From NCBI GenBank assembly GCA_965224705.1, contig OZ245056.1, forward strand, positions 224,001 through 288,000: a DNA stretch of 64,000 bases. Reading direction: 5' to 3'. The position numbers and the translations under genes are program-made. Below the pieces are notes generated by a model, which worked only from the letters and a program-made list of their open reading frames with translations, was not told the origin of the DNA and searched no databases. Origin of the DNA: Spirochaetaceae bacterium (lineage in GTDB: Bacteria > Spirochaetota > Spirochaetia > DSM-2461). This document shows, one piece after another, positions 1 through 19,178 of this stretch; position 1 is the first letter of the stretch, and each line of letters opens with the position of its first letter.

Positions 1-241
1 CGTGTTGTTCGTGTGGTTCGTTGTTTATAAAAAAAGACAGGAAGCAGATTGAAAGGACCGTTCTGGTTCTGGGACTTTTGGGCTAGGAGGATTTTTTACC
101 GCGAAAGGCACGGAAATTTGGTGGTTTCCTTTCCAGGGTTCCTGATTAACCCGCCCCACCAGGGCAATCGTATCTCATTCTGTTCCCGATAAAATAAGAA
201 TAATGGTTCTGGGGGATCGAAATGAGTTTTTTTGGGATGTT

Positions 242-413
242 TCTCACGGAGGCACGGAGGTGATGGCCCGAATGTCGAGGGGCTTTCGCAGGGGGCCTTG
301 GGGAAGTTTGGAGAGGGGTGTTTCTCTCGGAGGTGGGGAAATATATAGAGATATCCCTGTTATGTGTAAGGGAAGTATTGAATAATCTCCGTGAACTCCG
401 TGCCTCCGTGAGA
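242..413. repeat. Inverted repeat family C, the only two-armed copy
   Basis: tctcacggaggcacggag (242-259) and its perfect reverse complement ctccgtgcctccgtgaga (396-413); single left arms recur at ~1560, 3049, 4572, 6099, 7245, 8408. Confidence 0.9.
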
Positions 414-475
414 GGTTTTCGGTGGTGGAGGAGTTGCCAATGCAGGGGGCGTTTGCTGGGGGAGATTTGTTTCTG

Positions 476-664
476 TTAGAGCTTTTGGATCTCTTCTTCG
501 CTTAGGCCGGTGGCCTTGATGATGATGTCAAAAGAAACTCCGGCGGCTTTTAAGCGCCTGGCTGTTTGGGTTATGCCTGCTTTTTTGCCTTCTTTTATTC
601 CGTCATCCCAGGCCTTTTCCAGTTGAGGCCTCATCAGTTCTGTTACATCGGCAACAGGTACCAT
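476..664 (-). CDS. Putative internally initiated small C-terminal protein (RpnS-like antitoxin), 62 aa; equivalents at 1624-1836, 3097-3297, 6190-6378, 7301-7537, 8472-8672
   Basis: In-frame AAGGAG(GA) Shine-Dalgarno 6 nt before ATG (GKENNM/GKEDNM) in all six copies; product MVPVADVTELMRPQLEKAW...GLSEEEIQKL. Confidence 0.7.
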   Translation of the reverse strand: MVPVADVTELMRPQLEKAWDDGIKEGKKAGITQTARRLKAAGVSFDIIIKATGLSEEEIQKL

Positions 665-1229
665 ATTGTTCTCCTTGCCTTCGAAAATTGATAATCTCAT
701 TATAACGCCCTTAAGTAGCTTGTCAATAATCTGCTTGGGGAGACCGGACTCCTTGATTTCGATCTGGTCGGATAAGCGGTCGATATTCCGGCAGAATTCG
801 GATAGAAACACGCCGTCAGGCCCCGATAATTGGATGATTTCAATGTTGATGATGTGAATTTTGTACATTCCATAGTTGCCGATGAAGTGGCCGGGACATG
901 TCTCGATGAAATACTCTTTGTGTTCCCGGATGAATTTCCTCGGGGTTCTGGAGCAGATGAGTGTGATGGTTGTGTTGCTGTAGTTGGCTTTGGGGTTTTC
1001 TCTTAGGTAGAGGTTTGTGTATATGGAGAGGTCGTAAATGTCCTCTGTTCTTACGGCATCGCCGTATGATTTGTAGCTGACCAGGTTGAACGGAGCGAAG
1101 TAGTTGAAGATGTCGAATTCTACGCTGGCGGTGTTTTGTTTGATAAGGAGGACATCCAGCCTCTTGGGGCTTTTGAGCATTTCATGTTCCGTTTCAACCA
1201 GATATCCGCAAGAGCCAAAAAACTCCCTT
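476..1229 (-). pseudogene. Rpn-like PD-(D/E)XK protein copy 1, 5'-truncated (lacks first 23 codons); C-terminal small ORF 476-664 intact
   Basis: Homology to full copies ends at cctt 1226-1229, with an in-frame TAA immediately upstream on the minus strand. Confidence 0.8.
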
Positions 1230-1316
1230 TAACCCTCTGCGCTCTCTGCGTCCTCTGCGGTTAAAAAACCATGAGGGGGATATAAACCGCAGAGATCGCA
1301 GAGATACGCAGAGAAA
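1230..1316. repeat. Inverted repeat family A (ctctgcg units / cgcagag units); 7 copies at ~1230, 2745, 4215, 5768, 6944, 8103, 9565
   Basis: Left arm ctctgcgctctctgcgtcctctgcggtt, right arm aaccgcagagatcgcagagatacgcagag, ~22-nt loop. Confidence 0.9.
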
Positions 1317-1623
1317 TATGGGATAGAAAGATTGGTGAGTAATTACCTTCATTTGATGAAATAGAGTTACGGTATAAGGAATAATTGATGAAATCCTTTT
1401 GTGATTCTTGTGTGGTTTGTGGTTCATAAAAAAGGTTGGAAGCAGATTGAGAGGATTCTTTACCACGAAAGGCACGAAAATTTGGTGGTTTCCTTTTCAG
1501 GGTCCCGATAAGATGAGAATAATGGTTCCGGGGGATCGAAATGAGTTTTTTTGGGTGTTTCTCACGGAGGCACGGAGGGCACGGAGGTGGGGAACTCGAA
1601 ATGCAGGGGGAGATTTGTTTCTG

Positions 1624-2469
1624 TTAGAGCTTCTGGATCTTTTCTTCGCTCAGGCCGGTGGCCTTGATGATGATGTCAAGGGAGACTCCGGCGGCTTTTA
1701 AGCGCCTGGCTGTTTGGGTTTTTTCCTCATTTTTGCCTTCTTTTTTGCCCTCTTTTTTACCTTCTTTTATTCCGTCATCCCAGGCCTTCTCCAGTTGAGG
1801 CCTCATCAGTTCCGTTACATCGGCAACAGGTACCATATTGTCCTCCTTGCCCTCAAAGATAGATAGTCTCATTATAATGCCCTTAAGCAGTTTGTCAATA
1901 ATCTGTTTAGGGAAACCGGACTCCTTGATTTCGGTCTGGTCGGATAAGCGGTCAATATTCCGACAGAATTCGGATAGAAATATGCCGTCAGGTCCCGATA
2001 GCCGGATGGCTTCAATGTTGATAATGTGTATTTTGTACATCCCATAGTTGCCGATGAAGTGGCCGGGACATGTCTCGATGAAATACTCTTTGTGTTCCCG
2101 GATGAATTTCCTCGGGGTTCTGGAGCAGATGAGTGTGATGGTTGTGTTGCTGTAGTTAGCTCTGGGGTTTTCTCTCAGGTAGAGGTTTGTGTATATGGAG
2201 AGGTCGTAAATGTCCTGTGTTCTTACGGCATCGCCGTATGATTTGTAGCTGAGCAGATTGTACGGCGCAAAATAGTTGAAGATGTCGAATTCTACGCTGG
2301 CGGTGTTTTGTTTGATAAGGAGGACATCCAGCCTCTTGGGACTTTTAAGCATTTCATGTTCCGTTTCAACCAGATATCCGCAAGAGCCGAAAAACTCCCT
2401 TGCCTGTCTCTTGAAGAAGGTGTCCAGGGAGATTTGAGCTTTTGGTACTGATTTGGGCAGGGGCATCAT
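1624..2469 (-). CDS. Rpn-like PD-(D/E)XK nuclease-fold protein copy 2, full length (281 aa)
   Basis: LDTFFK, RLDVLLIK and NLLSYKS motifs; typical Rpn/TIGR01784-like tail EGKKEG...TARRLKAAGVSLDIIIKATGLSEE. Confidence 0.8.
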   Translation of the reverse strand: MMPLPKSVPKAQISLDTFFKRQAREFFGSCGYLVETEHEMLKSPKRLDVLLIKQNTASVEFDIFNYFAPYNLLSYKSYGDAVRTQDIYDLSIYTNLYLRENPRANYSNTTITLICSRTPRKFIREHKEYFIETCPGHFIGNYGMYKIHIINIEAIRLSGPDGIFLSEFCRNIDRLSDQTEIKESGFPKQIIDKLLKGIIMRLSIFEGKEDNMVPVADVTELMRPQLEKAWDDGIKEGKKEGKKEGKNEEKTQTARRLKAAGVSLDIIIKATGLSEEKIQKL

Positions 2470-2473
2470 ATTT

Positions 2474-2482
2474 AGAGTAGCA
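2474..2482 (-). promoter_or_regulatory. Putative extended -10 (TGcTACTCT) just before the start codon of full-length copies; also 3936-3944 and 9310-9318
   Basis: TGn-TACTCT lies 4-7 nt upstream of ATG and there is no Shine-Dalgarno, suggesting a leaderless mRNA. Confidence 0.5.
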
Positions 2483-3096
2483 TGATTTTTGAGAAGTGTT
2501 TAGGGCTGTGCATAGGGACACTGTGCAAGGAGTAATTTATGAAATCCTTTCGTGTGGTTCGTGGTTCACAAAAAGAGGCAGGAAGCAGATTGAAGGGACC
2601 TTCTGGTTCTGGGACTTTTGGGTTAGGAGGATTCTTTACCGCGAGAAACACGAAATTTTGGCGGTTTCCTTTTCAGGGGTACTGATTAAACCTCACCTTA
2701 AAAGTCAAACATGGCATGAATAAAGTTTGATGAGTAATTACCTTTAACCCTCTGCGCTCTCTGCGTCCTCTGCGGTTAAAAAATCATGAATGGGGATATA
2801 AACCGCAGAGATCGCAGAGATACGCAGAGAAATATAGTATAAAAAATTTGGTGAATAATTACCTTCATTTGATGAAATAGGGTTACTGTATAAGGAATAA
2901 TTGATGAAATCTGTTCGTGCCTTTTGTGTGGTTCGTGGTTTCTAAAAAGAGGCAGTAAGCAGATTGAGAGGATTCTTTACCACGAAAGGCACGAGAATTT
3001 GGTGGTTTCTTTGATTCCGGGGGATCGAAATGAGTTTTTTGGGGTGTTTCTCACGGAGGCACGGAGGTGAGGCTGTCGGATGCAGAGGATTTTTTG

Positions 3097-3930
3097 TTAG
3101 AGCTTTTGGATCTCTTCTTTGCTTAGGCCGGTGGCCTTGATGATGATATCAAGGGAAACTCCGGCGGCCTTGAAGCGCCTGGCTGTTTGCGCTATGCCTT
3201 CCTTTTTGCCTTCCTTTTTGCCTTCTTCTATGCCGTCATCCCAAGCTTTTTCCAGTTGAGGCCTCATCAGTTCCGTTACATCGGCAACAGGTACCATATT
3301 GTTCTCCTTGCCCTCGAAAATTGATAATCTCATTATAATGCCCTTAAGCAGTTTGTCAATAATCTGTTTGGGGAAACCGGACTCCTTGATTTCGGTCTGG
3401 TCGGATAAGCGGTCGATATTCCGGCAGAATTCGGATAGAAACACTCCGTCAGGTCCCGATAATCGGATAGTTTCAATGTTGATGATGTGAATTTTGTACA
3501 TCCCATAGTTGCCGATGAAGTGGCCAGGACATGTCTCGATGAAATACTCTTTGTGTTCCCGAATAAATTTCCTCGGGGTTCTGGAGCAGATGAGTGTGAT
3601 GGTTGTGTTGCCGTAGTTGGCTCTGGGGTTTTCTCTAAGGTACAGGTTGGTATAGATGGAGAGGTCGTAAATGTCCTGTGTTCTTACGGCATCGCCGTAT
3701 GATTTGTAGCTGACCAGATTGTATGGAGCGAAATAGTTGAAGATGTCGAATTCTACGCTGGCGGTGTTTTGTTTGGTAAGGAGGACATCCAGTCTCTTGG
3801 GGCTTTTGAGCATTTCATGTTCCGTTTCAACCAGGTATCCGCAAGAGCTAAAAAACTCCCTTGCCTGTCTCTTGAAGAAGGTGTCCAGGGAGATTTGGAC
3901 TTTTGGTACTGATTTGGGCAGGGGTATCAT
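3097..3930 (-). CDS. Rpn-like PD-(D/E)XK protein copy 3, full length (277 aa)
   Basis: Near-identical to copy 2. Confidence 0.8.
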   Translation of the reverse strand: MIPLPKSVPKVQISLDTFFKRQAREFFSSCGYLVETEHEMLKSPKRLDVLLTKQNTASVEFDIFNYFAPYNLVSYKSYGDAVRTQDIYDLSIYTNLYLRENPRANYGNTTITLICSRTPRKFIREHKEYFIETCPGHFIGNYGMYKIHIINIETIRLSGPDGVFLSEFCRNIDRLSDQTEIKESGFPKQIIDKLLKGIIMRLSIFEGKENNMVPVADVTELMRPQLEKAWDDGIEEGKKEGKKEGIAQTARRFKAAGVSLDIIIKATGLSKEEIQKL

Positions 3931-4752
3931 GTATTAGAGTAGCATGTTTTTTGGGAAGTGTTTAGGGCTGTGCAAGGGTCACTGTATAAGGAATAACTGA
4001 TGAAATCCTTTCGTGCTTTTCGTGTGGTTCGTGGTTTATAAAAAGATGCAGGAAGTAAATTGAAGGGAGCGTTCTGGTTCTGGGGCTTTTGGGTCAGGAG
4101 GATTCTTTACCGCGAGAAACACGAAAATTTGGCGGTTTCCTTTTCAGGGTTCCTGATTAAAACTCTCCTTAAAAGTCCAGAATGGCATGAATAAAGTTTG
4201 ATGAGTAATTACCTTTAACCCTCTGCGCTCTCTGCGTCCTCTGCGGTTAAAAAACCATGAATGAGGATATAAACCGCAGAGATACGCAGAGAAATATGGG
4301 ATAAAAATTGGTGAATAATTACCTTCATCTGATGAAATAGGGTTACTGTATAAGGAATAATTGATGAAATCTGTTCGTGCCTTTTGTGTGGTTCGTGGTT
4401 TATAAAAAGAGGCAGGAATCAGATTGACGGGACCGTTCTGGTTCTGGGACTTTTGGGTTAGGAAGATTTTTTTACCGCGAAAGACACGAAAATTTGGTGG
4501 TTTCCTTTTCAGGGTCCCGATAAGATGAGAATAATGGTTCCGGGGGATCGAAATGAGTTTTTTTGGTTTTTCCCACGGAGGGCACGAAGGTGGGGCTGTC
4601 GAATGCAGGGAGGCTGGGAAAGTGTTTTTGGAGGGATTTTTGAGGTTTTTCACGCCGGAAGGCACAGACATTCTTGATGAGATTTCCTTGTGGACACGGA
4701 AAGGAAATGCCTGTAGAATATAAAAATCCCTTAGAATCAGGAGATATTCCCC

Positions 4753-5022
4753 ATGCCTTCAATCTCAATGTTTTACGGACTTATCGTTTACATGTATTTC
4801 AAGGACAATAAACAGCACAAGCTTCCACATATCCATGTCAAATATCAAAATGACGAAGTCATCGTGCAAATACCGGAAGGAACAGTGCTTGAGGGGAAAA
4901 TCCCGACTTCCAGAATGAAACTGCTTCAGGCATGGATTGAATTACACAAAGAGGAATTGATCGCTGACTGGGCTCTTGCGGTTTCAGGTGAACAGCCATA
5001 CAAAATAGAACCATTGAGGTGA
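4753..5022 (+). CDS. DUF4160 family protein (DhiT-like toxin)
   Basis: MPSISMFYGLIVYMYFKDNKQHKLPHIH...AWIELHKEELIADW...IEPLR is typical DUF4160; AGGAG RBS. Confidence 0.9.
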   Translation: MPSISMFYGLIVYMYFKDNKQHKLPHIHVKYQNDEVIVQIPEGTVLEGKIPTSRMKLLQAWIELHKEELIADWALAVSGEQPYKIEPLR

Positions 5023-5029
5023 TACGGCG

Positions 5030-5272
5030 ATGAACCCCAGAGTAAAACATGTGGAAACAATTCCCGGCTATAAGTTGAAGCTGCACTTCAGCAATGGTGA
5101 AAAAGGAATTTATGACTGCTCCCCTCTGCTTGATTTTGGCGTGTTCAGGGAGCTTAAAGATGTCAGCTATTTCCAGTGGGCCAGTGCGAAAGACGGCACG
5201 GTTGTCTGGCCGCATGAGCAGGATATCTGTCCCGACACATTGTATCTGGATTCAGTGAAAATAGAGGTGTGA
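5030..5272 (+). CDS. DUF2442 family protein (DhiA-like antitoxin)
   Basis: YKLKLHFSNGE...GVFRELKD...GTVVWPHEQDICPDTLY; directly downstream of DUF4160. Confidence 0.9.
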   Translation: MNPRVKHVETIPGYKLKLHFSNGEKGIYDCSPLLDFGVFRELKDVSYFQWASAKDGTVVWPHEQDICPDTLYLDSVKIEV

Positions 5273-5278
5273 GTTGTT

Positions 5279-5320
5279 TTTTGCGCGGATATTGTCATTG
5301 AAAACAAGGTGATTTTTGAA
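5279..5320 (+). pseudogene. Fragment of a GxxExxY (PD-(D/E)XK-like) gene
   Basis: Translates FCADIVIENKVIFE, matching the family motif (F/Y)xADxxVExKVIxELK; cut by the MITE. Confidence 0.55.
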
Positions 5321-5488
5321 GGCGCCTCTAAAAAACACCCATTCCGTTTCTGACTTGATCTTTACCACTGCTGCTGCGTTGCTAAAATGCTCAAGCGCAG
5401 CTTAAGCTGCGCTTGAGCTTTTGTCGCCTTGTATCAGTGAAAAATCTCTGCGCCAGATTCCGAAAGCGGGTTTTTTTAGAGGCACCTT
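5319..5488. mobile_element. MITE (~170 bp) with terminal inverted repeats and a central perfect palindrome
   Basis: aaggcgcctctaaaaaac ... gtttttttagaggcacctt; 30-bp palindrome gctcaagcgcagcttaagctgcgcttgagc at 5389-5418. Confidence 0.8.
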
Positions 5489-6189
5489 TATAGCTACCGG
5501 AAAAACAAGTGAAATACGGCGAATGCGGCAGAGCTTGAGGTTGGCTGTGAAGCCAATCTATTCAGCAGGCTATGGACGAAATCAACAACGGGGGATACAG
5601 GCCGGGAAAATCGTTGGCTTTTATTGTGGAAAGACCGATAAAGCGGGAAATTTTCGCCGCCGATTTTTGTGGCCTCAGTGTGTATCATCTCATCATCGCT
5701 AAAATTTACAAGTTGGTTTGATTATTAGTTTCGACACGTTAAAAGTCAAACATGGAATAATTACCTTGAATCCTCTGCGCTCTCTGCGTCCTCTGCGGTT
5801 AAAAAACCATGAATGGGGATATAAACCGCAGAGATCGCGGAGATACGCAGAGAAATATGGGATAAAAAGATTGGTGAATAATTACTTTCATCTGATGAAA
5901 TAGGGTTACTGTATAAGGAGTAATTGATGAAATCCTTTCGTGCTTTTCGTGTGGTTCGCGGTTCATAAAAAGAGGTAGGAAGCAGATTGAGAGGATTCTT
6001 TACCACGAAAGGCACGAAAATTTGGTGGTTTTCTTTTCAGGGTTCCCGGTAAAATGAGAGTAATGGTTCTGGGAGATCGAAATGATTTTTTTGGTGTTTC
6101 TCACGGAGGCACGGAGGGCACGGAGGTGGGGAACTCAAAATACAGGGAGGCTTGCGGAGTTATGGGAGCTTGGGGGAGATTTGTTTCTG

Positions 6190-6943
6190 TTAGAGCTTCT
6201 GGATCTTTTCTTCGCTCAGGCCGGTGGCCTTAATGATGATGTCAAGGGAGACTCCGGCGGCTTTTAAGCGCCTGGCTGTTTGGGTTATGCCTGCTTTTTT
6301 GCCTTCTTTTATTCCGTCATCCCAGGCCTTTTCCAGTTGAGGCCTCATCAGTTCCGTTACATCGGCAACAGGTACCATATTGTCCTCCTTGCCCTCAAAG
6401 ATTGATAATCTCATTATAATGCCCTTAAGCAGTTTGTCAATAATCTGCTTTGGGAAACCGGACTCCTTGATTTCAGCCTGCTCGGATAAGCGGTCGATAT
6501 CCCGGCAGAATTCGGATAGAAACACGCCGTCAGGTCCCGATAATCGGATGGCTTCAATGTTGATGATGTGTATTTTGTACATCCCATAGTTGCCGATGAA
6601 ATGGCCGGGACATGTCTCGATGAAATACTCTTTGTGTTCCCGGATGAATTTCCGCGGGGTTCTGGAGCATATGAGTGTGATGGTTGTGTTGCTGTAGTTA
6701 GCTCTGGGGTTTTCTCTCAGGTAGAGGTTTGTGTATATGGAGAGGTCGTAAATGTCCTGTGTTCTTACGGCATCGCCGTATGATTTGTAGCTGACCAAAT
6801 TGTACGGAGTGAAGTAGTTGAAGATGTCGAATTCTACGCTGGCGGTGTTTTGTTTGATAAGGAGGACATCCAGTTTTTTCGGGTTTTTAAGCATTTCATG
6901 TTCCGTTTCAACCAGATATCCGCAGGAGCCGAAGAACTCCCTT
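6190..6943 (-). pseudogene. Rpn-like copy 4, 5'-truncated; small C-terminal ORF intact
   Basis: Same junction as copy 1 (cctt 6940-6943). Confidence 0.8.
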
Positions 6944-7300
6944 TAACCCTCTGCGCTCTCTGCGTCCTCTGCGGTTAAAAAACCATGAGGGGGATATAAA
7001 CCGCAGAGATCGCAGAGATACGCAGAGAAATATGGGGTAAAAGATTGGTGAATAATTACCTTCATCTGATGAAATAGGGTTACTGTATAAGGAATAATTG
7101 ATGAAATCCTTTCGTGCCTTTTGTGTGGTTCGTGGTTTCTAAAAAGAGGCAGTAAGCAGATTGAGAGGATTATTTACCACGAAAGACACGAAAATTTGGT
7201 GGTTTCCTTGATTCCGAGGGATCGAAATGAGTTTTTTTGGGTGTTTCTCACGGAGGCACGGAGGTAGGGAACTCGAAATGCAGGGGGGGATTTGTTTCTG

Positions 7301-8102
7301 TTAGAGCTTCTGGATCTTTTCTTCGCTCAGGCCGGTGGCCTTGATGATGATGTCAAGGGAGACTCCGGCGGCTTTTAAGCGCCTGGCTGTTTGGGTTATG
7401 GCTTTTCTTTCGCCTTCTTTCTTGCCCTCTTTTTTGCCTTCTTTCTTGCCCTCTTTCCTGCCCTCTTCTATTCCATCACCCCAGGCTTTTTCCAGTTGAG
7501 GCCTCATCAGTTCCGTTACATCGGCAACAGGTACCATATTGTCCTCCTTGCCCTCAAAGATTGATAATCTCATTATAATGCCCTTAAGCAGTTTGTCAAT
7601 AATCTGTTTGGGGAAACCGGACTCCTTGATTTCAGCCTGGCCGGATAAGCGGTCAATATTCCGACAGAATTCGGATAGAAATATGCCGTCAGGCCCCGAT
7701 AATTGGATGGTTTCAATGTTGATGATGTGAATTTTGTACATTCCATAGTCGCCGATGAAGTGCCCAGGGCATGTCTCGATGAAATACTCTTTGTGTTCCC
7801 GGATGAATTTCCGCGGGGTTCTGGAGCAGATGAGTGTGATGGTTGTGTTGCCGTAGTTGGCTCTGGAGTTTTCTCTCAGGTAGAGGTTTGTGTATATGGA
7901 GAGGTCGTAAATGTCCTGTGTTCTTACGGCATCGCCGTATGATTTGTAGCTGACCAGATTGTACGGCGCAAAATAGTTGAAGATGTCGAATTCTACGCTG
8001 GCGGTGTTTTGTTTGATAAGGAGGACATCCAGCCTCTTGGGACTTTTAAGCATTTCATGTTCCGTTTCAACCAGATATCCGCAAGAGCCGAAAAACTCCC
8101 TT
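7301..8102 (-). pseudogene. Rpn-like copy 5, 5'-truncated; small C-terminal ORF intact with the longest repeat tract
   Basis: Same junction (cctt 8099-8102). Confidence 0.8.
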
Positions 8103-8471
8103 TAACCCTCTGCGCTCTCTGCGTCCTCTGCGGTTAAAAAATCATGAATGGGGATATAAACCGCAGAGATCGCAGAGATACGCAGAGAAATATAGTATAA
8201 AAAATTTGGTGAATAATTACCTTCATTTGATGAAATAGGGTTACTGTATAAGGAATAATTGATGAAATCTGTTCGTGCCTTTTGTGTGGTTCGTGGTTTC
8301 TAAAAAGAGGCAGTAAGCAGATTGAGAGGATTATTTACCGCGAAAGGTGCGAAAATTTGGTGGTTTCCTTGATTCCGAGGGATCGAAATGAGTTTTTTTG
8401 GGGTGTTTCTCACGGAGGCACGGAGGGCACGGAGGTGGGGAACTCGAAATGCAGGGGGAGATTTGTTTCTG

Positions 8472-9305
8472 TTAGAGCTTCTGGATCTTTTCTTCGCTCA
8501 GGCCGGTGGCCTTGATGATGATGTCAAGGGAGACTCCGGCGGCTTTTAAGCGCCTGGCTGTTTGGGTTATGCCTTCTTTTTTGCCTTCTTTTTTGCCCTT
8601 TTTTATTCCGTCATCCCAGGCCTTCTCCAGTTGAGGCCTCATCAGTTCCGTTACATCGGCAACAGGTACCATATTGTTCTCCTTGCCCTCGAAAATTGAT
8701 AATCTCATTATAACGCCCTTAATCAGTTTGTCAATAATCTGCTTTGGGAAACCGGACTCCTTGATTTCGGTCTGGTCGGATAAGCGGTCGATATTCCGGC
8801 AGAATTCGGATAGAAACACGCCGTCAGGTCCCGATAATCGGATGGCTTCAATGTTGATGATGTGTATTTTGTACATCCCATAGTTGCCGATGAAGTGGCC
8901 GGGACATGTCTCGATGAAATACTCTTTGTGTTCCCGGATGAATTTCCGCGGGGTTCTGGAGCAGATGAGTGTGATGGTTGTGTTGCTGTAGTTAGCTCTG
9001 GGGTTTTCTCTCAGGTAGAGGTTTGTGTATATGGAGAGGTCGTAAATGTCCTGTGTTCTTACGGCATCGCCGTATGATTTGTAGCTGAGCAGATTGTACG
9101 GCGCAAAATAGTTGAAGATGTCGAATTCTACGCTGGCGGTGTTTTGTTTGATAAGGAGGACATCCAGCCTCTTGGGACTTTTAAGCATTTCATGTTCCGT
9201 TTCAACCAGGTATCCGCAAGAGCCGAAAAACTCCCTTGCCTGTCTCTTGAAGAAGGTATCCAGGGAGATTTGAGCTTTTGGTACTGATTTGGGCAGGGGC
9301 ATCAT
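8472..9305 (-). CDS. Rpn-like PD-(D/E)XK protein copy 6, full length (277 aa)
   Basis: Near-identical to copy 2. Confidence 0.8.
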   Translation of the reverse strand: MMPLPKSVPKAQISLDTFFKRQAREFFGSCGYLVETEHEMLKSPKRLDVLLIKQNTASVEFDIFNYFAPYNLLSYKSYGDAVRTQDIYDLSIYTNLYLRENPRANYSNTTITLICSRTPRKFIREHKEYFIETCPGHFIGNYGMYKIHIINIEAIRLSGPDGVFLSEFCRNIDRLSDQTEIKESGFPKQIIDKLIKGVIMRLSIFEGKENNMVPVADVTELMRPQLEKAWDDGIKKGKKEGKKEGITQTARRLKAAGVSLDIIIKATGLSEEKIQKL

Positions 9306-9382
9306 ATTTAGAGTAGCATGATTTTTGGGAAGTGTTTAGGGCTGTGCATAGGATCACTTTGCAAGGAGTAATTGATGAAATC

Positions 9383-9477
9383 CTTTCGTGCTTTTCGTGT
9401 GGTTCGTGGTTCATAAAAAGAGGCAGGAAGCAGATTGAGAGGATTCTTTACCACGAAAGGCACGAAAGACACGAAAA
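9383..9477. repeat. Inverted repeat family B (ttcgtg units / cacgaa units); about 10 copies at ~1, 1395, 2548, 2910, 4007, 4370, 5934, 7109, 8269, 9383
   Basis: ctttcgtgcttttcgtgtggttcgtggtt ... taccacgaaaggcacgaaagacacgaaaa; short-loop and long-loop variants. Confidence 0.85.
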
Positions 9478-9739
9478 TTTGGTGATTTTCTTTCCAGGGG
9501 TACTGATTAAACCTCTCCTTAAAAGTCCAGAATGGAATAAAAAGTTTGGTGAATAATTACCTTGAATCCTCTGCGTCCTCTGCGGTTAAAAAACCATGAG
9601 GGGGATATAAACCGCAGAAATCGCAGAGATACGCAGAGAAATATGGGATAAAAAATTGGTGAATAATTACTTTCATATGATGAAATAAGGTTACTGTACT
9701 TCATTAAACAGTGTAAAAAGAGTCCTGAAGAGCCACTGC

Positions 9740-10065
9740 TTTGTTGAGGAAAGGAAACGGCGTAAACAGCTTGTGCTGCAGAAGCTCGCAGATTACCATC
9801 CCGTGCAGGCTCCAAACGATGTGTGAACGGTTGATTTTAAATGCTGGTGGTATGCTAAAGACCGTCCCGCTGTGAGCCATTGACAGTCAGAGATGAGCTG
9901 TTTTATTCTGGAAGCGGTGATTTTGCCTTCCCCCCGCATAGAAGATGTTTAAATGACCTTTGAGAGGGTTTTTAAGCTGTATGGACTGCCCGGAGTCATC
10001 AAAAGTGATAATGGAAGTCCCTTTGCCAACGCTCGTTCAGTCCGAGGCCTCACACGCCTTTCTTA
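9740..10065 (+). pseudogene. Degraded DDE integrase-core transposase (IS481-like)
   Basis: VQAPNDV*TVDFK.WW...CEPLTVRDE, then FERVFKLYGLPGVIKSDNGSPFA...GLTRLS, with stops and frameshifts. Confidence 0.75.
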
Positions 10066-10214
10066 CAGCTGTGGCGCAGGGAATTCAACACCGTCAGGCC
10101 TCATGAAAGGTCATGTCGGCAGTTGTGGCATGGACAAGCTAAAAAGGCATATTTGCCGTGTTTTACTCGGCTTAATCCATTCACTACTGCATATTTCTGA
10201 TTTAAGATAACAGC

Positions 10215-11342
10215 ATGACAGGCGCCGATAATTATAATATTCAGGACATTATGTCCCATTTTGATCTACTGGGTGATTTTACCGATGCCGCTCCCTATGG
10301 GAACGGACATATAAACGATACCTTCGCAGTGAACTACCTGCAGGCCGGAGTTGAGATTCGCTATATTCTGCAGCGTATAAACGGTTTCGTATTCAAGGAA
10401 CCCGAGAAGCTGATGGAGAACGTAGGGCGGATATGTGATGAACTGCAGCGCCAGCTGAAGGCCGACGGCGTTCCTGATCCGTCGAGGCGCGCACTTACCA
10501 ATGTCAATGAGTTGTCGGGCCTTCCGTATTATAAGGATCCGGACGGAAACGTCTGGCGCGTCTATCTGTTTATAGAAGGCGCCGTGGGGTTCGATATAAT
10601 CGAAAATGAAGAGCAGGCTTATCAGGCCGCCGCCGCCTTCGGCGAGTTTCAGAAGCTCCTGACCAATATACCGGGTGGAAGACTGCATGAAACGATACCC
10701 GGATTCCATGATACGCCTAAGCGATTTGGAAGGTTCAGGGAGGTTCTTCTCCTGGACGCTGGGGGCCGGGCGGAGTCGGCAGGCTCCGAGATCGACTTCT
10801 TTCTGTCGTATGAATCACAAGTCGGCAGGCTTCTTGATCTGCATCGGCAGGGACTAATTCCGGAACGGGTAACTCATAACGATACGAAGCTGAACAATGT
10901 GTTGATTGATCTTAAAACCCATGAAGCGGTTTGCGTTATAGATCTCGATACCTCAATGCCGGGGCTCGCGCCCTATGATTTTGGTGACCTTGTCCGTACC
11001 TCGACTACTTCAACTGCCGAAGACGAGACAGATCTCTCGAAGATTGTATTCCTTCCCGAAATGTTCAAGGCTACAATTCGGGGATATCTCTCTACTGCGG
11101 GAGACTTTCTCACGAAGGCCGAACTTGATAACCTCGTGTTCGGCGGAATCCTGATGACTTATGAGGTCGGATTGAGATTTTTGACCGATTACCTCAAAGG
11201 CGATGTCTACTTCAAGACGGCCTACTCCGAACATAACCTTATCCGCTGCCGGACTCAAATGACTCTCGTGAAATTGATGGAAGAGAATCGTGATTCACTT
11301 GAGAAATATGCACTGGAGGAGTACAACCGACTGTCGTCATGA
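10215..11342 (+). CDS. Phosphotransferase (APH/choline kinase fold), N-acetylhexosamine 1-kinase-like
   Basis: YGNGHINDT, LQRIN, ETIPGFHDT, RVTHNDTKLNN, VIDLDT, YDFGD. Confidence 0.85.
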   Translation: MTGADNYNIQDIMSHFDLLGDFTDAAPYGNGHINDTFAVNYLQAGVEIRYILQRINGFVFKEPEKLMENVGRICDELQRQLKADGVPDPSRRALTNVNELSGLPYYKDPDGNVWRVYLFIEGAVGFDIIENEEQAYQAAAAFGEFQKLLTNIPGGRLHETIPGFHDTPKRFGRFREVLLLDAGGRAESAGSEIDFFLSYESQVGRLLDLHRQGLIPERVTHNDTKLNNVLIDLKTHEAVCVIDLDTSMPGLAPYDFGDLVRTSTTSTAEDETDLSKIVFLPEMFKATIRGYLSTAGDFLTKAELDNLVFGGILMTYEVGLRFLTDYLKGDVYFKTAYSEHNLIRCRTQMTLVKLMEENRDSLEKYALEEYNRLSS

Positions 11343-12251
11343 TTCTCTCCAGCCCTCGCTCTTGAGCTTTATCGATGACGAGTACTCCGAGGGAGTAAAT
11401 CCGGTAAAACGCTTGAACATCTTTGAGAAATACTGCTGGGATGAAAATCCCAGAATATCACAGATCTGAGTAAAATTATATTTCCCCTCGCGTATAAGCT
11501 GTTTAGCTTTTTCAAGCTTCACTCTTTTGTAATACTCCATGACGCTGTGGCCCGTTCTTTCCCGGAACACCTGATATAGATATGAACGACTGTATCCAAT
11601 CGAGCCGCAGATGTCGTCGAGGTGAAATTCCGCGGACATATTATTTTCGAGGAAGTTGACAACCCTATTGAAGGCCCACTCTTTCGTTCGCTGGTTAATC
11701 GAACTCGAGATCTTGTCTCTCGTCGAAATATCGGTGCCGCGTCTTATCAGCCTTACCAGCATCTCCTCAAGATAGAGCAGAATCATATTCTCGCATCCGA
11801 ACGGAGCCGCCTCCCGCCGCACAAGTCCCTGGCTCAGGGGATCGTCGAGCGGTGAGCTGAACGCGCGTCCGGCCTCATGGATAATCTGCGCAAGCAGGGT
11901 ATGTTCCTGTTCGGCAATCCTCAGTATCTTTTCGGAAAACCAGGCGGCTGCGGGGCTCCGGCAGCTGTAGGATACCACAACGAGGTTGGGGGCGGTTTCG
12001 CCGTTTGCTCGCAGTCTGTGAAATTCTCCCGGCTGGTGAAATATCAGATCTCCCTTGAAGAGGGTGTGGTGTTTTTTATCGGTGAATACCTCGACTAAGC
12101 CGTTATCCACATAGAGCAGTTCCCAGAAATTATGGGCTTCGCCGGGGAAGTAGAAGTCCTTCGTATACTCGAAGTAGTGGATCGTATATATTTGATCGAC
12201 TGCGATTTCCTTCTTCATCGTGGTTCCATAATATTTGGGATTCTCCCTCAT
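11337..12251 (-). CDS. AraC family regulator with cupin domain
   Basis: GEAHNFWELLYVD; C-terminal LEKAKQLI...LGFSSQQYFSKMFKRFTGFTPSEY. Confidence 0.92.
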   Translation of the reverse strand: MRENPKYYGTTMKKEIAVDQIYTIHYFEYTKDFYFPGEAHNFWELLYVDNGLVEVFTDKKHHTLFKGDLIFHQPGEFHRLRANGETAPNLVVVSYSCRSPAAAWFSEKILRIAEQEHTLLAQIIHEAGRAFSSPLDDPLSQGLVRREAAPFGCENMILLYLEEMLVRLIRRGTDISTRDKISSSINQRTKEWAFNRVVNFLENNMSAEFHLDDICGSIGYSRSYLYQVFRERTGHSVMEYYKRVKLEKAKQLIREGKYNFTQICDILGFSSQQYFSKMFKRFTGFTPSEYSSSIKLKSEGWRES

Positions 12252-18057: not shown

Positions 18058-19178
18058 GTGGAAAAACAGTACCATTTAAGACTTGATGAAGCTGTTATGA
18101 ATCAGGTCAAAATAACCGCCGCTTTACAGGATATGACCGTGAAGAAGTATACCTCTTATGTCTCCGAAGTCGCCGAAGCCACATCTGAATACGGGATTTG
18201 TGCTTTTCGTTTTATTGACCTTTTTGCGGGAATTGGGGGCTTGAGAATCGCTTTTGAAAGAGCAGGGGGGAAATGCGTATTTTCTTCTGAATACAATAAA
18301 TTTTCCAAGGAGACCTATGCCGCCAATTTTCTGGAAATGCCGAAAGGTGATATTACCCAGATTCACGAAAAACTTATACCGGACCACGACCTTCTTGTCG
18401 CCGGTTTCCCCTGCCAACCCTTTTCCATCGCCGGAGTGTCAAAGAAAAAAAGTCTGGGTAAATCCCGCGGATTTCTTGATAAAACACAGGGAACACTGTT
18501 TTTTGATATAGTAAGAATTCTACGACATAAAAGACCGTTGGCTTTCCTGTTGGAGAATGTTAAAAATCTCACATCCCACGATAAGGGAAACACCTTTCAG
18601 ATTATAAGCGAAACGCTTCACAATCTTGGTTATGAGATGTTTTATCAGGTTCTTGAGGTAAGTATTACACACCCCAGCACCGGGAGCGGATTTTTATCGC
18701 TGGGTTTGATAGAATGATATACGGAAATAACATCCCTTTCGTTTTTCCCGATATACCCCAAACGACTCCCAGGCTGAAAGATATTCTGGAAAAGAAAGTA
18801 GACCCCAAATATACATTGACTGATCATTTATGGGACTATCTACAAAGATACGCCAAAGAACATAAAAAGAAAGGGAACGGTTTTGGATTTGGTGTGGCCA
18901 ATTTAAACGGGATCACGAGAACATTGAGCGCAAGATATTATAAAGATGGATCGGAGATACTCATTCCACAAAAAGATAAAAATCCCCGAAGACTGACACC
19001 GAGAGAATGCGCCCGATTGCAGGGATTTTCTGATGATTTTAAAATTGTAGTCTCCGACACGCAGGCGTATCGGCAGTTCGGCAATTCCGTTGTCGTACCG
19101 CTTGCATGTGAAGTTGCAGAGAAGATAGTCAACGTCATGGATATGGGAAATGCTCATACAGGGGTGGTTTCACTATGA
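18058..19178 (+). pseudogene. dcm: C5 cytosine methyltransferase, Dcm/M.EcoRII-like, split by a frameshift at ~18655
   Basis: [28 protein letters not shown] in the other frame; [27 protein letters not shown]. Confidence 0.85.

Follow-up and report, generated by a model that had tools for sequence, protein, structure and literature searches.

Here we describe a tandem array of paralogous genes at the left end of a 64,000-nt window, the whole stretch of DNA analysed, which covers bases 224001–288000 of the 3.006-Mb, one-contig genome (47% G+C) of a Spirochaetaceae bacterium (contig OZ245056.1); coordinates below are those of the window unless given as genome positions. The array is built from copies of a nuclease-like gene, for which we use the working name geneX. 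We consider it probable, with some reserve, that the locus is a tandem array of Rpn-type ‘gene-within-gene’ toxin–antitoxin genes resting on an unannotated nuclease family. Its architecture, fold class, tail homology, internal expression signals, repeat variation, mosaicism and purifying selection are directly apparent in the sequences and structure models. By analogy with the Escherichia coli Rpn proteins, the long geneX product would be toxic, a small product encoded within the same gene would neutralise it, and the two may serve in phage defence.

In E. coli, the toxin RpnL is accompanied by an intragenic antitoxin, RpnS, which is made from an internal promoter and an internal start, and four-residue repeats act as the RpnL/RpnS specificity determinant (PMC10400941, Zhong et al. 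2023; here and below, statements drawn from this article and from the commentary PMC10400984 refer to the portions of their text available to us). The same article reports that rpn genes are enriched in defence islands and that rpn gene arrays were ‘generated by tandem direct duplications’, and the commentary adds that, where a bacterium has many rpn copies, differences in their repeats keep them from inhibiting one another in trans (PMC10400984). With tandem arrays and repeat variation on record in PMC10400941, the core of the arrangement is thus already known, contrary to the initial annotation, an earlier reading of the bare sequence, which knew of no description of it; a literature search returned no other paper on such arrays beyond these two, the supplementary information of PMC10400941 lying outside its scope. 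The new elements are the nuclease family, a Ser variant of its active site, nucleotide-level conservation of the internal promoter, truncated copies that retain only the small protein, gene conversion between arrays, and array-restricted modules. Toxicity, neutralisation and a role in defence, which were reported for the E. coli proteins (PMC10400941), are predicted properties of geneX.

Six homologous open reading frames (ORFs) lie on the minus strand between positions 476 and 9305, with start-to-start spacings of 1172, 1461, 3081, 1159 and 1135 nt, and 300-nt blocks are 85–96% identical. At the amino acid level, the other five copies are 98, 95, 95, 94 and 92% identical to copy 6, and the paralogues as a whole range from 89 to 98%. 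The six near-identical genes in one orientation that the initial annotation had noticed are confirmed, with the amendment that copies 1, 4 and 5 are 5′-truncated at one junction. The copies are as follows (module A1 is one of the spacer modules listed further below).

476–1228, minus strand: geneX copy 1, 5′-truncated; the ORF (476–1180, 234 aa) starts at the equivalent of M40, homology continues to 1228 and abuts module A1; two four-residue repeats.
1624–2469, minus strand: geneX copy 2, full length, 281 aa; four four-residue repeats.
3097–3930, minus strand: geneX copy 3, full length, 277 aa; three four-residue repeats.
6190–6942, minus strand: geneX copy 4, 5′-truncated at the same A1 junction; ORF 6190–6894, 234 aa; two four-residue repeats.
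7301–8101, minus strand: geneX copy 5, 5′-truncated at the same A1 junction; ORF 7301–8053, 250 aa; six four-residue repeats.
8472–9305, minus strand: geneX copy 6, full length, 277 aa, the modelled copy; residues 1 to about 205 form a PD-(D/E)XK-like domain (E37, D48, S74-Y-K76) and residues 212–277 an RpnS-like tail; three four-residue repeats.

Structure modelling predicts that the N-terminal domain has a PD-(D/E)XK-type fold. The AlphaFold2 model of copy 6, built on a 24-sequence alignment, has a pLDDT of 79.2 and a pTM of 0.68, with most of the N-domain at 85–94, and its secondary structure (helix 15–29, strands 32–36, 49–53 and 70–76, helix 84–100 and strand 109–115) follows an alpha-beta-beta-beta-alpha-beta order. 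The highest-ranking structures found for it with VIA-align are AF1548 (Z 8.5, rmsd 3.4, 120 residues aligned), McrC (Z 7.8) and NucS (Z 7.5), and FokI, Can2, Card1, LlaBIII, Hjc, CdiA-CT, SduA and Cfr10I (1cfr_A, Z 4.9) appear in lower rows; about 40 of the 50 rows are nucleases of the restriction-endonuclease fold, judged from their titles. Because the individual Z values are modest, the fold argument rests on this consistency across rows. A PD-(D/E)XK-fold N-domain followed by a small helical C-terminal domain is also the organisation of E. coli RpnA–E and the plasmid-borne RpnP2 (PMC10400941).

In sequence, by contrast with E. coli Rpn, the geneX N-domain is matched neither by PDDEXK_2 (PF12784) or Transposase_31 (PF04754) nor by the N-terminal part of the Rpn family model TIGR01784. 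None of the six copies has any Pfam match, and TIGR01784 aligns to the tail only (residues 221–281 at most, about 57 residues), at 36–40 bits against a cut-off of 52.1. When 5.8 billion proteins were searched with a word index, 20 of 1425 candidates proved to be matches; three of them (P0018–P0020) are confined to the tail, and the closest protein (P0001) is 84% identical. A profile of the N-domain alone reached much further: among 1.84 billion cluster representatives it found 1098 at E ≤ 0.001, 204 at E ≤ 1e-10 and 31 at E ≤ 1e-30. In 28 sampled matches, none carries a Pfam family on that domain, and 8 of 17 sampled matches touch TIGR01784 through their C-terminal part, all below the cut-off. 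Many distant members likewise end in four-residue repeats and a helix–turn–helix (HTH)-like tail. By these searches the N-domain represents a large nuclease family without a Pfam model, distinct from canonical Rpn.

The tail, in turn, corresponds in sequence and in its modelled structure to an RpnS-type helical domain. A profile of the 24 family members, compared with the sequences of the PDB, found the RpnA chain 7th0_A (E 0.0028, 20.2 bits), and the model tail superposes on E. coli RpnA-S in the same entry with Z 6.5 and an rmsd of 2.5 Å over 46 of 46 residues at 28% identity (the first model gave the same Z), so that the likeness to RpnA-S extends to both sequence and structure. The small protein predicted from this region, 66–70 aa long in this genome, was also modelled as a homodimer, with an ipSAE of 0.69 against 0.00 for the best control, a pLDDT of 88 and at least 98% agreement in contacts between runs; among solved structures, the mark it reached is attained by 20 of the 30 homodimers and by 1 of the 23 monomers. 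The modelled interface comprises residues 18–39, the repeats included. Since RpnA-S is already a solved dimer, this result shows likeness more than it proves binding.

Strong expression signals lie inside the coding sequence, immediately ahead of the tail. M212, the first residue of the predicted small protein, shows no variation across 15 sequences and is kept by at least 90% in a set of 24; the following features surround it.

8472–8672, minus strand: small internal ORF predicted for copy 6 (66 aa and a stop codon), which begins at the near-invariant M212 in frame with the long form; an equivalent is present in all six copies.
8707–8734, minus strand: internal sigma-70 promoter of copy 6, TTGACA-16-TATAAT, matching the consensus at 12 of 12 positions, about 35 nt upstream of the internal ATG and followed by an AAGGAG Shine–Dalgarno sequence.
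7572–7599, minus strand: internal sigma-70 promoter of copy 5, TTGACA-16-TATAAT, 12 of 12.

The same promoter, with AAGGAG 6 nt before the ATG, occurs, by eye, in 6 of 6 copies and in other arrays, within the 75 nt that precede the conserved M-x-x-V-A-D-V-T motif; overall, the scanned stretch holds 8 promoter-like sites, against 3.6 ± 1.8 in shuffled sequence. In Spirochaetaceae relatives with 45–68% protein identity, TTGACA, a TAAAAT- or TATAAA-type −10 element and a GGAGG ribosome site are kept despite changes in the encoded residues (II, YK or VK; KE, GR or GE), and the Leptonemataceae genes, which are more distant, retain the ATG and its ribosome site but have a weak promoter. These signals, together with the likeness to E. 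coli Rpn, in which an internal promoter and start yield a small protein identical to the tail (PMC10400941), indicate that an internal start in geneX probably yields a small inhibitor of the gene's own product. In the regions ahead of the full-length copies (2470–2560 and 9306–9400), we observed by eye no Shine–Dalgarno sequence before the long-form ATG and a weak −10-like TACTCT 4 nt before it; weak, possibly leaderless expression of the long form would fit this region, unlike the strong internal signals. Available RNA data consist of short library contigs that lie on a neighbouring DUF4160/DUF2442 gene pair and on short pieces of the geneX copies; they are unable to show transcription starts or to rank parts and were not used as evidence.

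The copies differ mainly in the number of 12-nt units that encode K-E-G-K-type four-residue repeats in the tail, of which copies 1–6 have 2, 4, 3, 2, 6 and 3. Tandem Repeats Finder (TRF) delimits them as follows.

7412–7467, minus strand: period-12 tandem repeat of copy 5, 4.7 copies, encoding K-E-G-K-type four-residue repeats.
574–596 (1.9 copies), 1719–1768 (4.2), 3192–3234 (2.6–3.6), 6288–6310 (1.9) and 8570–8604 (2.3–2.7), minus strand: period-12 repeats of the other copies.

Across ten copies of this array (array 1) and a second one described below (array 2), nucleotide diversity is 0.11–0.20 in the repeat part against 0.035–0.073 elsewhere. The pattern recurs in four arrays of relatives, where tandem paralogues differ mainly by the count of GIQK/GRQE, GMQK or A(R/E)GK units: the tails of one array (L037) contain 7–12 GIQK/GRQE units in proteins of 302–322 aa, those of another (L042) contain 2–4 units, and L043 and L053 are alike in pattern. 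With E. coli Rpn, geneX shares a multi-copy, patchy occurrence and a small protein whose first helix bears hypervariable four-residue repeats; the repeats are reported to begin 8–20 residues after the internal Met in E. coli Rpn, compared with about 22 in geneX (PMC10400941).

On the model of RpnL and RpnS, a full-length copy would give a long protein (L) with a PD-(D/E)XK-fold effector domain and a C-terminal helical tail, and its internal promoter, ribosome-binding site and in-frame ATG would give a protein of 66–70 aa (S) identical to that tail. S would bind the tail of L through its long first helix and so keep L inactive, and the number of four-residue repeats in this helix (2–6) would decide which S fits which L. 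With repeat number matching S to L, the copies would be insulated from each other.

Half of the copies in the window depart from the full-length plan in one and the same way. In copies 1, 4 and 5, homology ends at about codon 23 at one identical A1 junction, where an in-frame TAA stands, and the ORFs restart at the M40 equivalent. These copies would lack helix 1, strand 1 and E37 and keep the internal promoter and S, and could thus act as S-only genes and as donors in gene conversion. By eye, 4–5 nt (CCTT(T)) are common to the junction and to the sequence that usually flanks A1 on its left, a match that fits a single microhomology-mediated deletion of about 300 nt that was later copied, and accounts for the two unit lengths. 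This half of the copies, truncated yet with the small-protein gene kept, sets the array apart from the tandem rpn arrays of the available published text.

The copies are old and constrained rather than freshly amplified, since dN/dS is low (0.08–0.20, at dS 0.105–0.32) in all 15 pairs within array 1, truncated copies included. They have also recombined, as the initial annotation supposed. Nearest neighbours switch along the gene, also between arrays 1 and 2, and a PHI-type test over 68 informative sites gave 0.403 against 0.473 ± 0.0165, with none of 2000 permutations as low and 47% of site pairs incompatible; together these results argue that gene conversion is frequent, and it reaches across arrays 775 kb apart. 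Because of it, the low dN/dS of the truncated copies is no proof that they are selected as proteins. In the portions of PMC10400941 and PMC10400984 available, tandem rpn arrays resemble this one in their head-to-tail duplicated units without target-site duplications and in copies that vary in repeat number; clear gene conversion between distant arrays distinguishes geneX from that account. We accordingly picture an array that would have arisen by tandem duplication or unequal crossing-over, with a truncated unit type from one microhomology-mediated deletion, and would have evolved by gene conversion within and between arrays and by slippage of the 12-nt repeats.

Spirochaetes also possess silent-cassette gene-conversion systems, namely Borrelia vls and the tprK donor sites of Treponema pallidum. 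geneX resembles them in its tandem, promoterless 5′-truncated copies beside full-length ones and in mosaics that point to segmental gene conversion. It differs in that its products would be cytoplasmic, nuclease-like proteins and not surface antigens, and in that the truncated copies keep an internal promoter.

Between the genes, the spacers can be divided into four modules, A1, A2, B and C, which we mapped by BLAST.

6943–7030, also 1229–1316, 2744–2832, 4215–4292, 5772–5855, 8102–8190 and 9569–9641, no strand assigned: module A1, built of 9-mers (CTCTGCG core) arranged as inverted triplets; strong hairpin.
7039–7112, also 1327–1399, 2848–2911, 3975–4011 (part), 4307–4371, 5865–5938, 8206–8269 and 9650–9698, no strand assigned: module A2, no hairpin.
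7109–7208, also 11–130, 1408–1494, 2546–2593, 2914–3009, 4008–4141, 4374–4506, 5935–6031, 8272–8369 and 9383–9467, no strand assigned: module B, a weak imperfect palindrome of TTCGTG/CACGAA 8–9-mers.
7209–7290, also 213–261, 1526–1578, 3012–3068, 4538–4566 (part), 6075–6147 and 8370–8426, no strand assigned: module C, CACGGAGG 8-mers forming one arm, which begins directly past the stop codon of each gene.

On the plus strand, the order C, gene, (A2-tail, B and linker, in full-length units only), A1, A2, B, C recurs in every unit, and to this extent the fixed scaffold of palindromic modules described in the initial annotation is present. A significant hairpin is formed by A1 alone, which folds at −28 kcal/mol with a z-score of −9.3, a value that none of 200 shuffles equalled; folding of B (z −1.1), A2 (z −0.85) and C (z +0.8) is not significant against shuffles, and the inverted partner arm of C is found only at 387–413. 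A1-to-C blocks are 91–98% identical within array 1 and 89–93% identical to array 2, a divergence of 2–9% against dS values of 0.105–0.32, which makes the spacers better conserved than synonymous sites. A scan of window positions 1–12000 with Rfam gave only sub-threshold chance matches.

The modules differ in where else they occur. Across five nuclease-gene array regions that make up 2.7% of the genome, matches to B, C and A2 inside and outside number 22 and 0, 15 and 0, and 15 and 2, whereas 56 of 119 matches to A1 lie outside the arrays, among ordinary genes. REP/BIME- and MITE-type elements are dispersed palindromic elements, and A1 is like them in being a hairpin of about 75 nt at tens of intergenic sites and in clusters, some of which bracket genes; it is unlike them in its stems of inverted 9-mer triplets, and modules B, C and A2 are set apart by their confinement to nuclease-gene arrays. 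No RAYT-like transposase came to light, no search having been aimed at one. One A1 observation concerns genome 1010.0–1014.6 kb (L081:5083-9623), where clusters in opposite orientation bracket an AAA_14/DUF4143 gene (PADLOC PDC-S01, 343 bits) with a PDDEXK_3 gene just beyond. The module C 8-mer has a counterpart in another genome of the genus (L044:3162-5872), in a 98-bp satellite of about 29 units with (CACGGAGG)2-3, 4–7 kb upstream of a geneX copy. Among relatives, geneX arrays are essentially without A1, A2 and C, and a B-like array stands upstream of only 2 of 55 copies. We considered and rejected two origins or roles for the modules: that B is a conserved operator of geneX, as a B-like inverted 9-mer array directly before two copies in one relative might suggest, was discarded because only those 2 of 55 copies have it; and derivation from 23S-rRNA-IVS four-helix-bundle modules was discarded because only one truncated PF05635 fragment lies near array 2, without such arrays. 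That fragment (23S_rRNA_IVP; genome 1007743–1007853; L081:2700-2870, minus strand) sits beside an insertion sequence (IS) at the end of array 2, scores 22.9 bits, below the cut-off, and has no heptamer arrays around it.

The modules also enclose cargo other than geneX. As the initial annotation noticed, one slot of the array (4567–5771) holds an unrelated pair of toxin–antitoxin-type genes, DUF4160 and DUF2442, on the strand opposite to geneX.

4753–5022, plus strand: DUF4160 gene, 89 aa, DhiT-like toxin; PF13711 at 83.7 bits, NF048015 at 94.4 bits against a cut-off of 100.
5030–5272, plus strand: DUF2442 gene, 80 aa, presumed antitoxin partner; PF10387 at 49.1 bits, NF048016 at 21.1 bits against a cut-off of 200.
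5320–5490, no strand assigned: dispersed palindromic element after the pair, which BLAST matches at more than 100 places in the genome; a terminator-like hairpin at about 5372–5445 forms its core.

Judged by these profile scores, the pair is a member of the domain-pair family and not the DhiT/DhiA equivalog. To the left of the window, sequence that we retrieved shows the array continuing to about genome 222.6 kb, one slot there being a canonical PDDEXK_2 gene of 288 aa. Finally, at genome 1171–1185 kb (L082:7070-17375; L083:2270-4704), five tandem AAA-ATPase_like/PDDEXK_9 genes (581–676 aa, period about 2.13 kb) are followed by two PDDEXK_2 genes, each gene being separated by A1- and C-type arms; NACHT-Mrr_cat and Schlafen/AlbA_2 genes adjoin the cluster, which has the look of a defence-type island.

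Such exchangeable slots raise the question of an integron-like cassette system, the layout proposed in the initial annotation, in which palindromic modules would be recombination sites that capture, store and shuffle toxin and antitoxin cassettes. Integron cassette arrays carry same-orientation genes between imperfect palindromes, toxin–antitoxin cargo is common in them, and a chromosomal integron is reported in Treponema denticola. The geneX locus shares the same-orientation genes, the imperfect palindromes and the toxin–antitoxin cargo; the same flanking modules, C to one side and A1-A2-B to the other, surround cargo of four kinds, namely full geneX, truncated geneX, the DUF4160/DUF2442 pair and a PDDEXK_2 gene, and A1- and C-type modules interleave the AAA-ATPase_like/PDDEXK_9 and PDDEXK_2 array as well. 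The near-confinement of B, C and A2 to such arrays and the conservation of the spacers above synonymous sites point the same way. Against this stand the genome itself, which has no integron integrase IntI (the best TIGR02249 match, at 1067 kb, scores 90 bits against a cut-off of 265) and no tyrosine recombinase (PF00589) within about 60 kb of array 1 or 2, the nearest being about 60 kb from array 2; the relatives, whose geneX arrays do without the modules; and the modules, of which A1 alone folds significantly and is itself dispersed in a REP- or MITE-like manner. By eye, no attC signature was seen, and A1, a genuine hairpin, has no RYYYAAC/GTTRRRY cores. The spacers are composites of 350–500 nt, unlike those of integrons, and the cargo belongs mostly to one gene family. 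The one junction shared by three truncated copies, with its microhomology, fits deletion then duplication and not site-specific capture, and the published account of rpn arrays is tandem duplication (PMC10400941). We consequently think an integron-like system unlikely here, and the proposed integron layout is not supported.

An origin by repeated transposition is more improbable still. On this account the units would be copies of a ‘PD-(D/E)XK transposase’ with terminal palindromes that inserted again and again into one locus, which would suit the multi-copy, patchy family, the palindromic modules that flank the genes and the IS remnants at array edges (DDE_Tnp_1_4 by array 2, an rve-like fragment by array 1). 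However, no autonomous PD-(D/E)XK transposase is known. All copies stand head-to-tail with a shared spacer and have neither inverted terminal repeats nor target duplications at their ends, the copies of relatives lack such flanks, and plasmid and phage collections gave no geneX match. Rpn genes have moreover been judged non-transposing (PMC10400941). We therefore give this account very little credence. In the reading that we favour, of a duplicated and gene-converted toxin–antitoxin array, the modules look like lineage-specific repetitive elements, palindromic or of short tandem repeats, which would have been co-amplified with the array units and probably supply homology for unequal exchange. 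As far as the available published text goes, tandem rpn arrays differ from geneX, whose units carry a fixed, lineage-specific module set that is shared with other nuclease-gene arrays.

Several observations weigh against this favoured reading. PADLOC, Pfam and NCBIfam scans of geneX left the N-domain unrecognised; hhalign of the family against the nine PDDEXK_2 (Rpn-type) paralogues that the genome contains gave an alignment confined to the tail, from which we read an Rpn-like architecture on a different nuclease family; a Foldseek search of the PDB returned nothing at E ≤ 0.001 for either model; and all VIA-align Z values are below 9, a range described by the tool as common. Repeat number is equal in copies 3 and 6, and likewise in 1 and 4, so that insulation would be incomplete. 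The same modules flank other gene families too, and the conservation of spacers above synonymous sites is left unexplained by a ‘passive spacer’. At the active site, the close family keeps E37, D48 and K76 without exception, yet the (D/E)-x-K of the catalytic signature is incomplete: its acid is Ser (S74) in 24 of 24 close family members, the clade that includes geneX, and no compensating acid is conserved at ≥ 90% across the Ser clade. With S74 and no replacement acid, L may not be an active Mg-dependent nuclease.

The wider family sets this substitution in context. We aligned geneX with 90 listed representatives of 255–350 aa, dropping shorter and longer ones. Of these 91 superfamily sequences, 90 have D at position 48, 90 have K at position 76, 90 have N at position 71 and 88 have E or D at position 37; position 74 is E in 66, S in 21 and another residue in 4. 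The motif thus reads D...S-Y-K in geneX and D...E-Y-K in the wider family, and, by eye, D...E-I-Q in the co-resident PDDEXK_2 paralogue, which sets geneX apart from Rpn. As the wider family has Glu in a canonical D...E-Y-K, the geneX clade has lost it. Of the 21 Ser-clade sequences, 17 have G-x-x-x runs of at least three units, as do 27 of the 66 in the Glu clade.

These data bear on a rival view in which the long protein is no toxin at all: an inactive nuclease fold, with Ser in place of Glu, would bind DNA or regulate, the small form would be dominant-negative, and the arrays would be plain paralogue expansions. S74 in all 24 close members, while 66 of 91 superfamily sequences keep Glu, and the missing compensating acid both suit it, as does the HTH-like character of the tail, for which the structure search gave TrpR-like and FlhD rows over residues 237–277 and for which HHpred relatedness to HTH proteins is reported in PMC10400941. 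Invariance of D48, K76, E37 and N71 in the Ser clade is, however, unexpected for a dead site, and E153 is invariant as well, in the close family only. A strong internal promoter for an inhibitor-like fragment, together with hypervariable repeats, would suit a controlled toxin. Restriction enzymes of the Cfr10I type, moreover, have an S-x-K motif and draw the acid from another part of the protein, which counts against this view. We hold it to be rather unlikely, and ‘toxic nuclease’ remains an activity that we infer from sequence for geneX. What the initial annotation had called Rpn-like toxins with intragenic antitoxins is accordingly supported in its long/short architecture, RpnS-like tail, internal promoter, Shine–Dalgarno sequence and ATG, and variable repeats, and needs revision in its N-domain, which is not canonical Rpn and has Ser for the Glu of ExK; the PD-(D/E)XK fold itself agrees with the model and the nuclease rows of VIA-align and found no counterpart in the Foldseek search.

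geneX is not confined to the window. By tblastn, the source genome contains nine intact copies, three truncated ones and several fragments in three main arrays: array 1 at genome 224–233 kb; array 2 at 998–1005 kb (L033:6717-12894), with four intact copies, one PDDEXK_2 slot and the same modules, ending at a DDE_Tnp_1_4 IS; and array 3 at 1943–1959 kb (L034), with two intact copies, one frameshifted copy and fragments. Both arrays 1 and 2 are flanked by large caspase-domain (Peptidase_C14/CHAT) and Ig/FGE-sulfatase proteins (genome 217.4–221.9 kb on the side of array 1; L081:9989-11995 on that of array 2). At the right edge of array 1, an 85-aa ORF (9953–10210) without a Pfam match is similar, by eye, to an rve-type transposase in its DDE core (…SDNGSPF…). 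Further into the window, a 219-aa ORF (18058–18717) matches only positions 1–144 of the 324-position C-5 cytosine DNA methylase model and looks truncated or split.

In a species-representative collection we found 39 loci in six metagenome-assembled genomes (MAGs; three Spirochaetaceae, two Leptonemataceae and one Leptospirales), and among 31 related genomes geneX occurs in four, the source included, all of the same genus and all one- or two-contig assemblies; its absence from fragmented assemblies may be a failure of assembly. The arrays of relatives have 3, 3, 4 and at least 12 near-full copies, the largest (L037; contig CBDDOY010000002.1 of a Spirochaetaceae MAG, 953.7–974.6 kb) being a tandem series with a period of about 1.3 kb in which each spacer has a different hairpin with a 15-bp stem. 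Comparison with related genomes thus recovers similar arrays whose copies vary in repeat number, and essentially none of the A1, A2 and C modules. Public runs labelled mollusc metagenome hold 0.22–0.32 of sampled words, from which we draw no claim about habitat.

These relatives also speak to the concern that one gene or gene pair was expanded through repeat mis-assembly. Short-read contigs from public runs (Logan) do break within the array and none spans it; alternative joins are anchored by less than 31 nt and were not counted. The copies are nonetheless distinct, by 2–11% sequence divergence and by repeat number and length, and they include two unit types and a unique slot; the genome is a single 3.0-Mb contig, and three other one- or two-contig genomes have comparable arrays. 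An artefact of this kind is scarcely credible.

The boundaries of the units invite a further, speculative thought. Hairpins and inverted 8–9-mer arrays (A1, B and C) mark unit boundaries in geneX, PDDEXK_2 and AAA-ATPase/PDDEXK_9 arrays alike, and they might be cis-acting sites of nuclease-driven diversification, cut or bound by the arrays’ own ‘recombination-promoting’ nucleases or HTH tails, which would trigger unequal exchange and segmental gene conversion, with S-only copies as donor cassettes as in vls and tprK. We regard this as unlikely; if true, the arrays would be a self-diversifying library of toxin and antitoxin specificities.

More broadly, geneX would bring to a second nuclease family, hypothetical in current libraries and at least 1,098 cluster representatives strong at E ≤ 0.001, the RpnL/RpnS design in which the toxin gene contains its antitoxin, and the RpnS tail has the appearance of a portable control module that different nuclease domains have acquired. 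Promoter and ribosome-site motifs kept inside coding sequence across 45–68% protein identity form a clean case of dual coding constraint, and the Ser-for-Glu clade raises the question of whether such effectors still cut DNA. With 2–6 repeats here and many more in relatives, the arrays offer a natural panel on how repeat number sets the specificity between long and short forms. Array-restricted modules common to different nuclease-gene arrays may, in addition, bear on how rpn duplications and repeat changes arise, a question that Zhong et al. leave open in the available text (PMC10400941).

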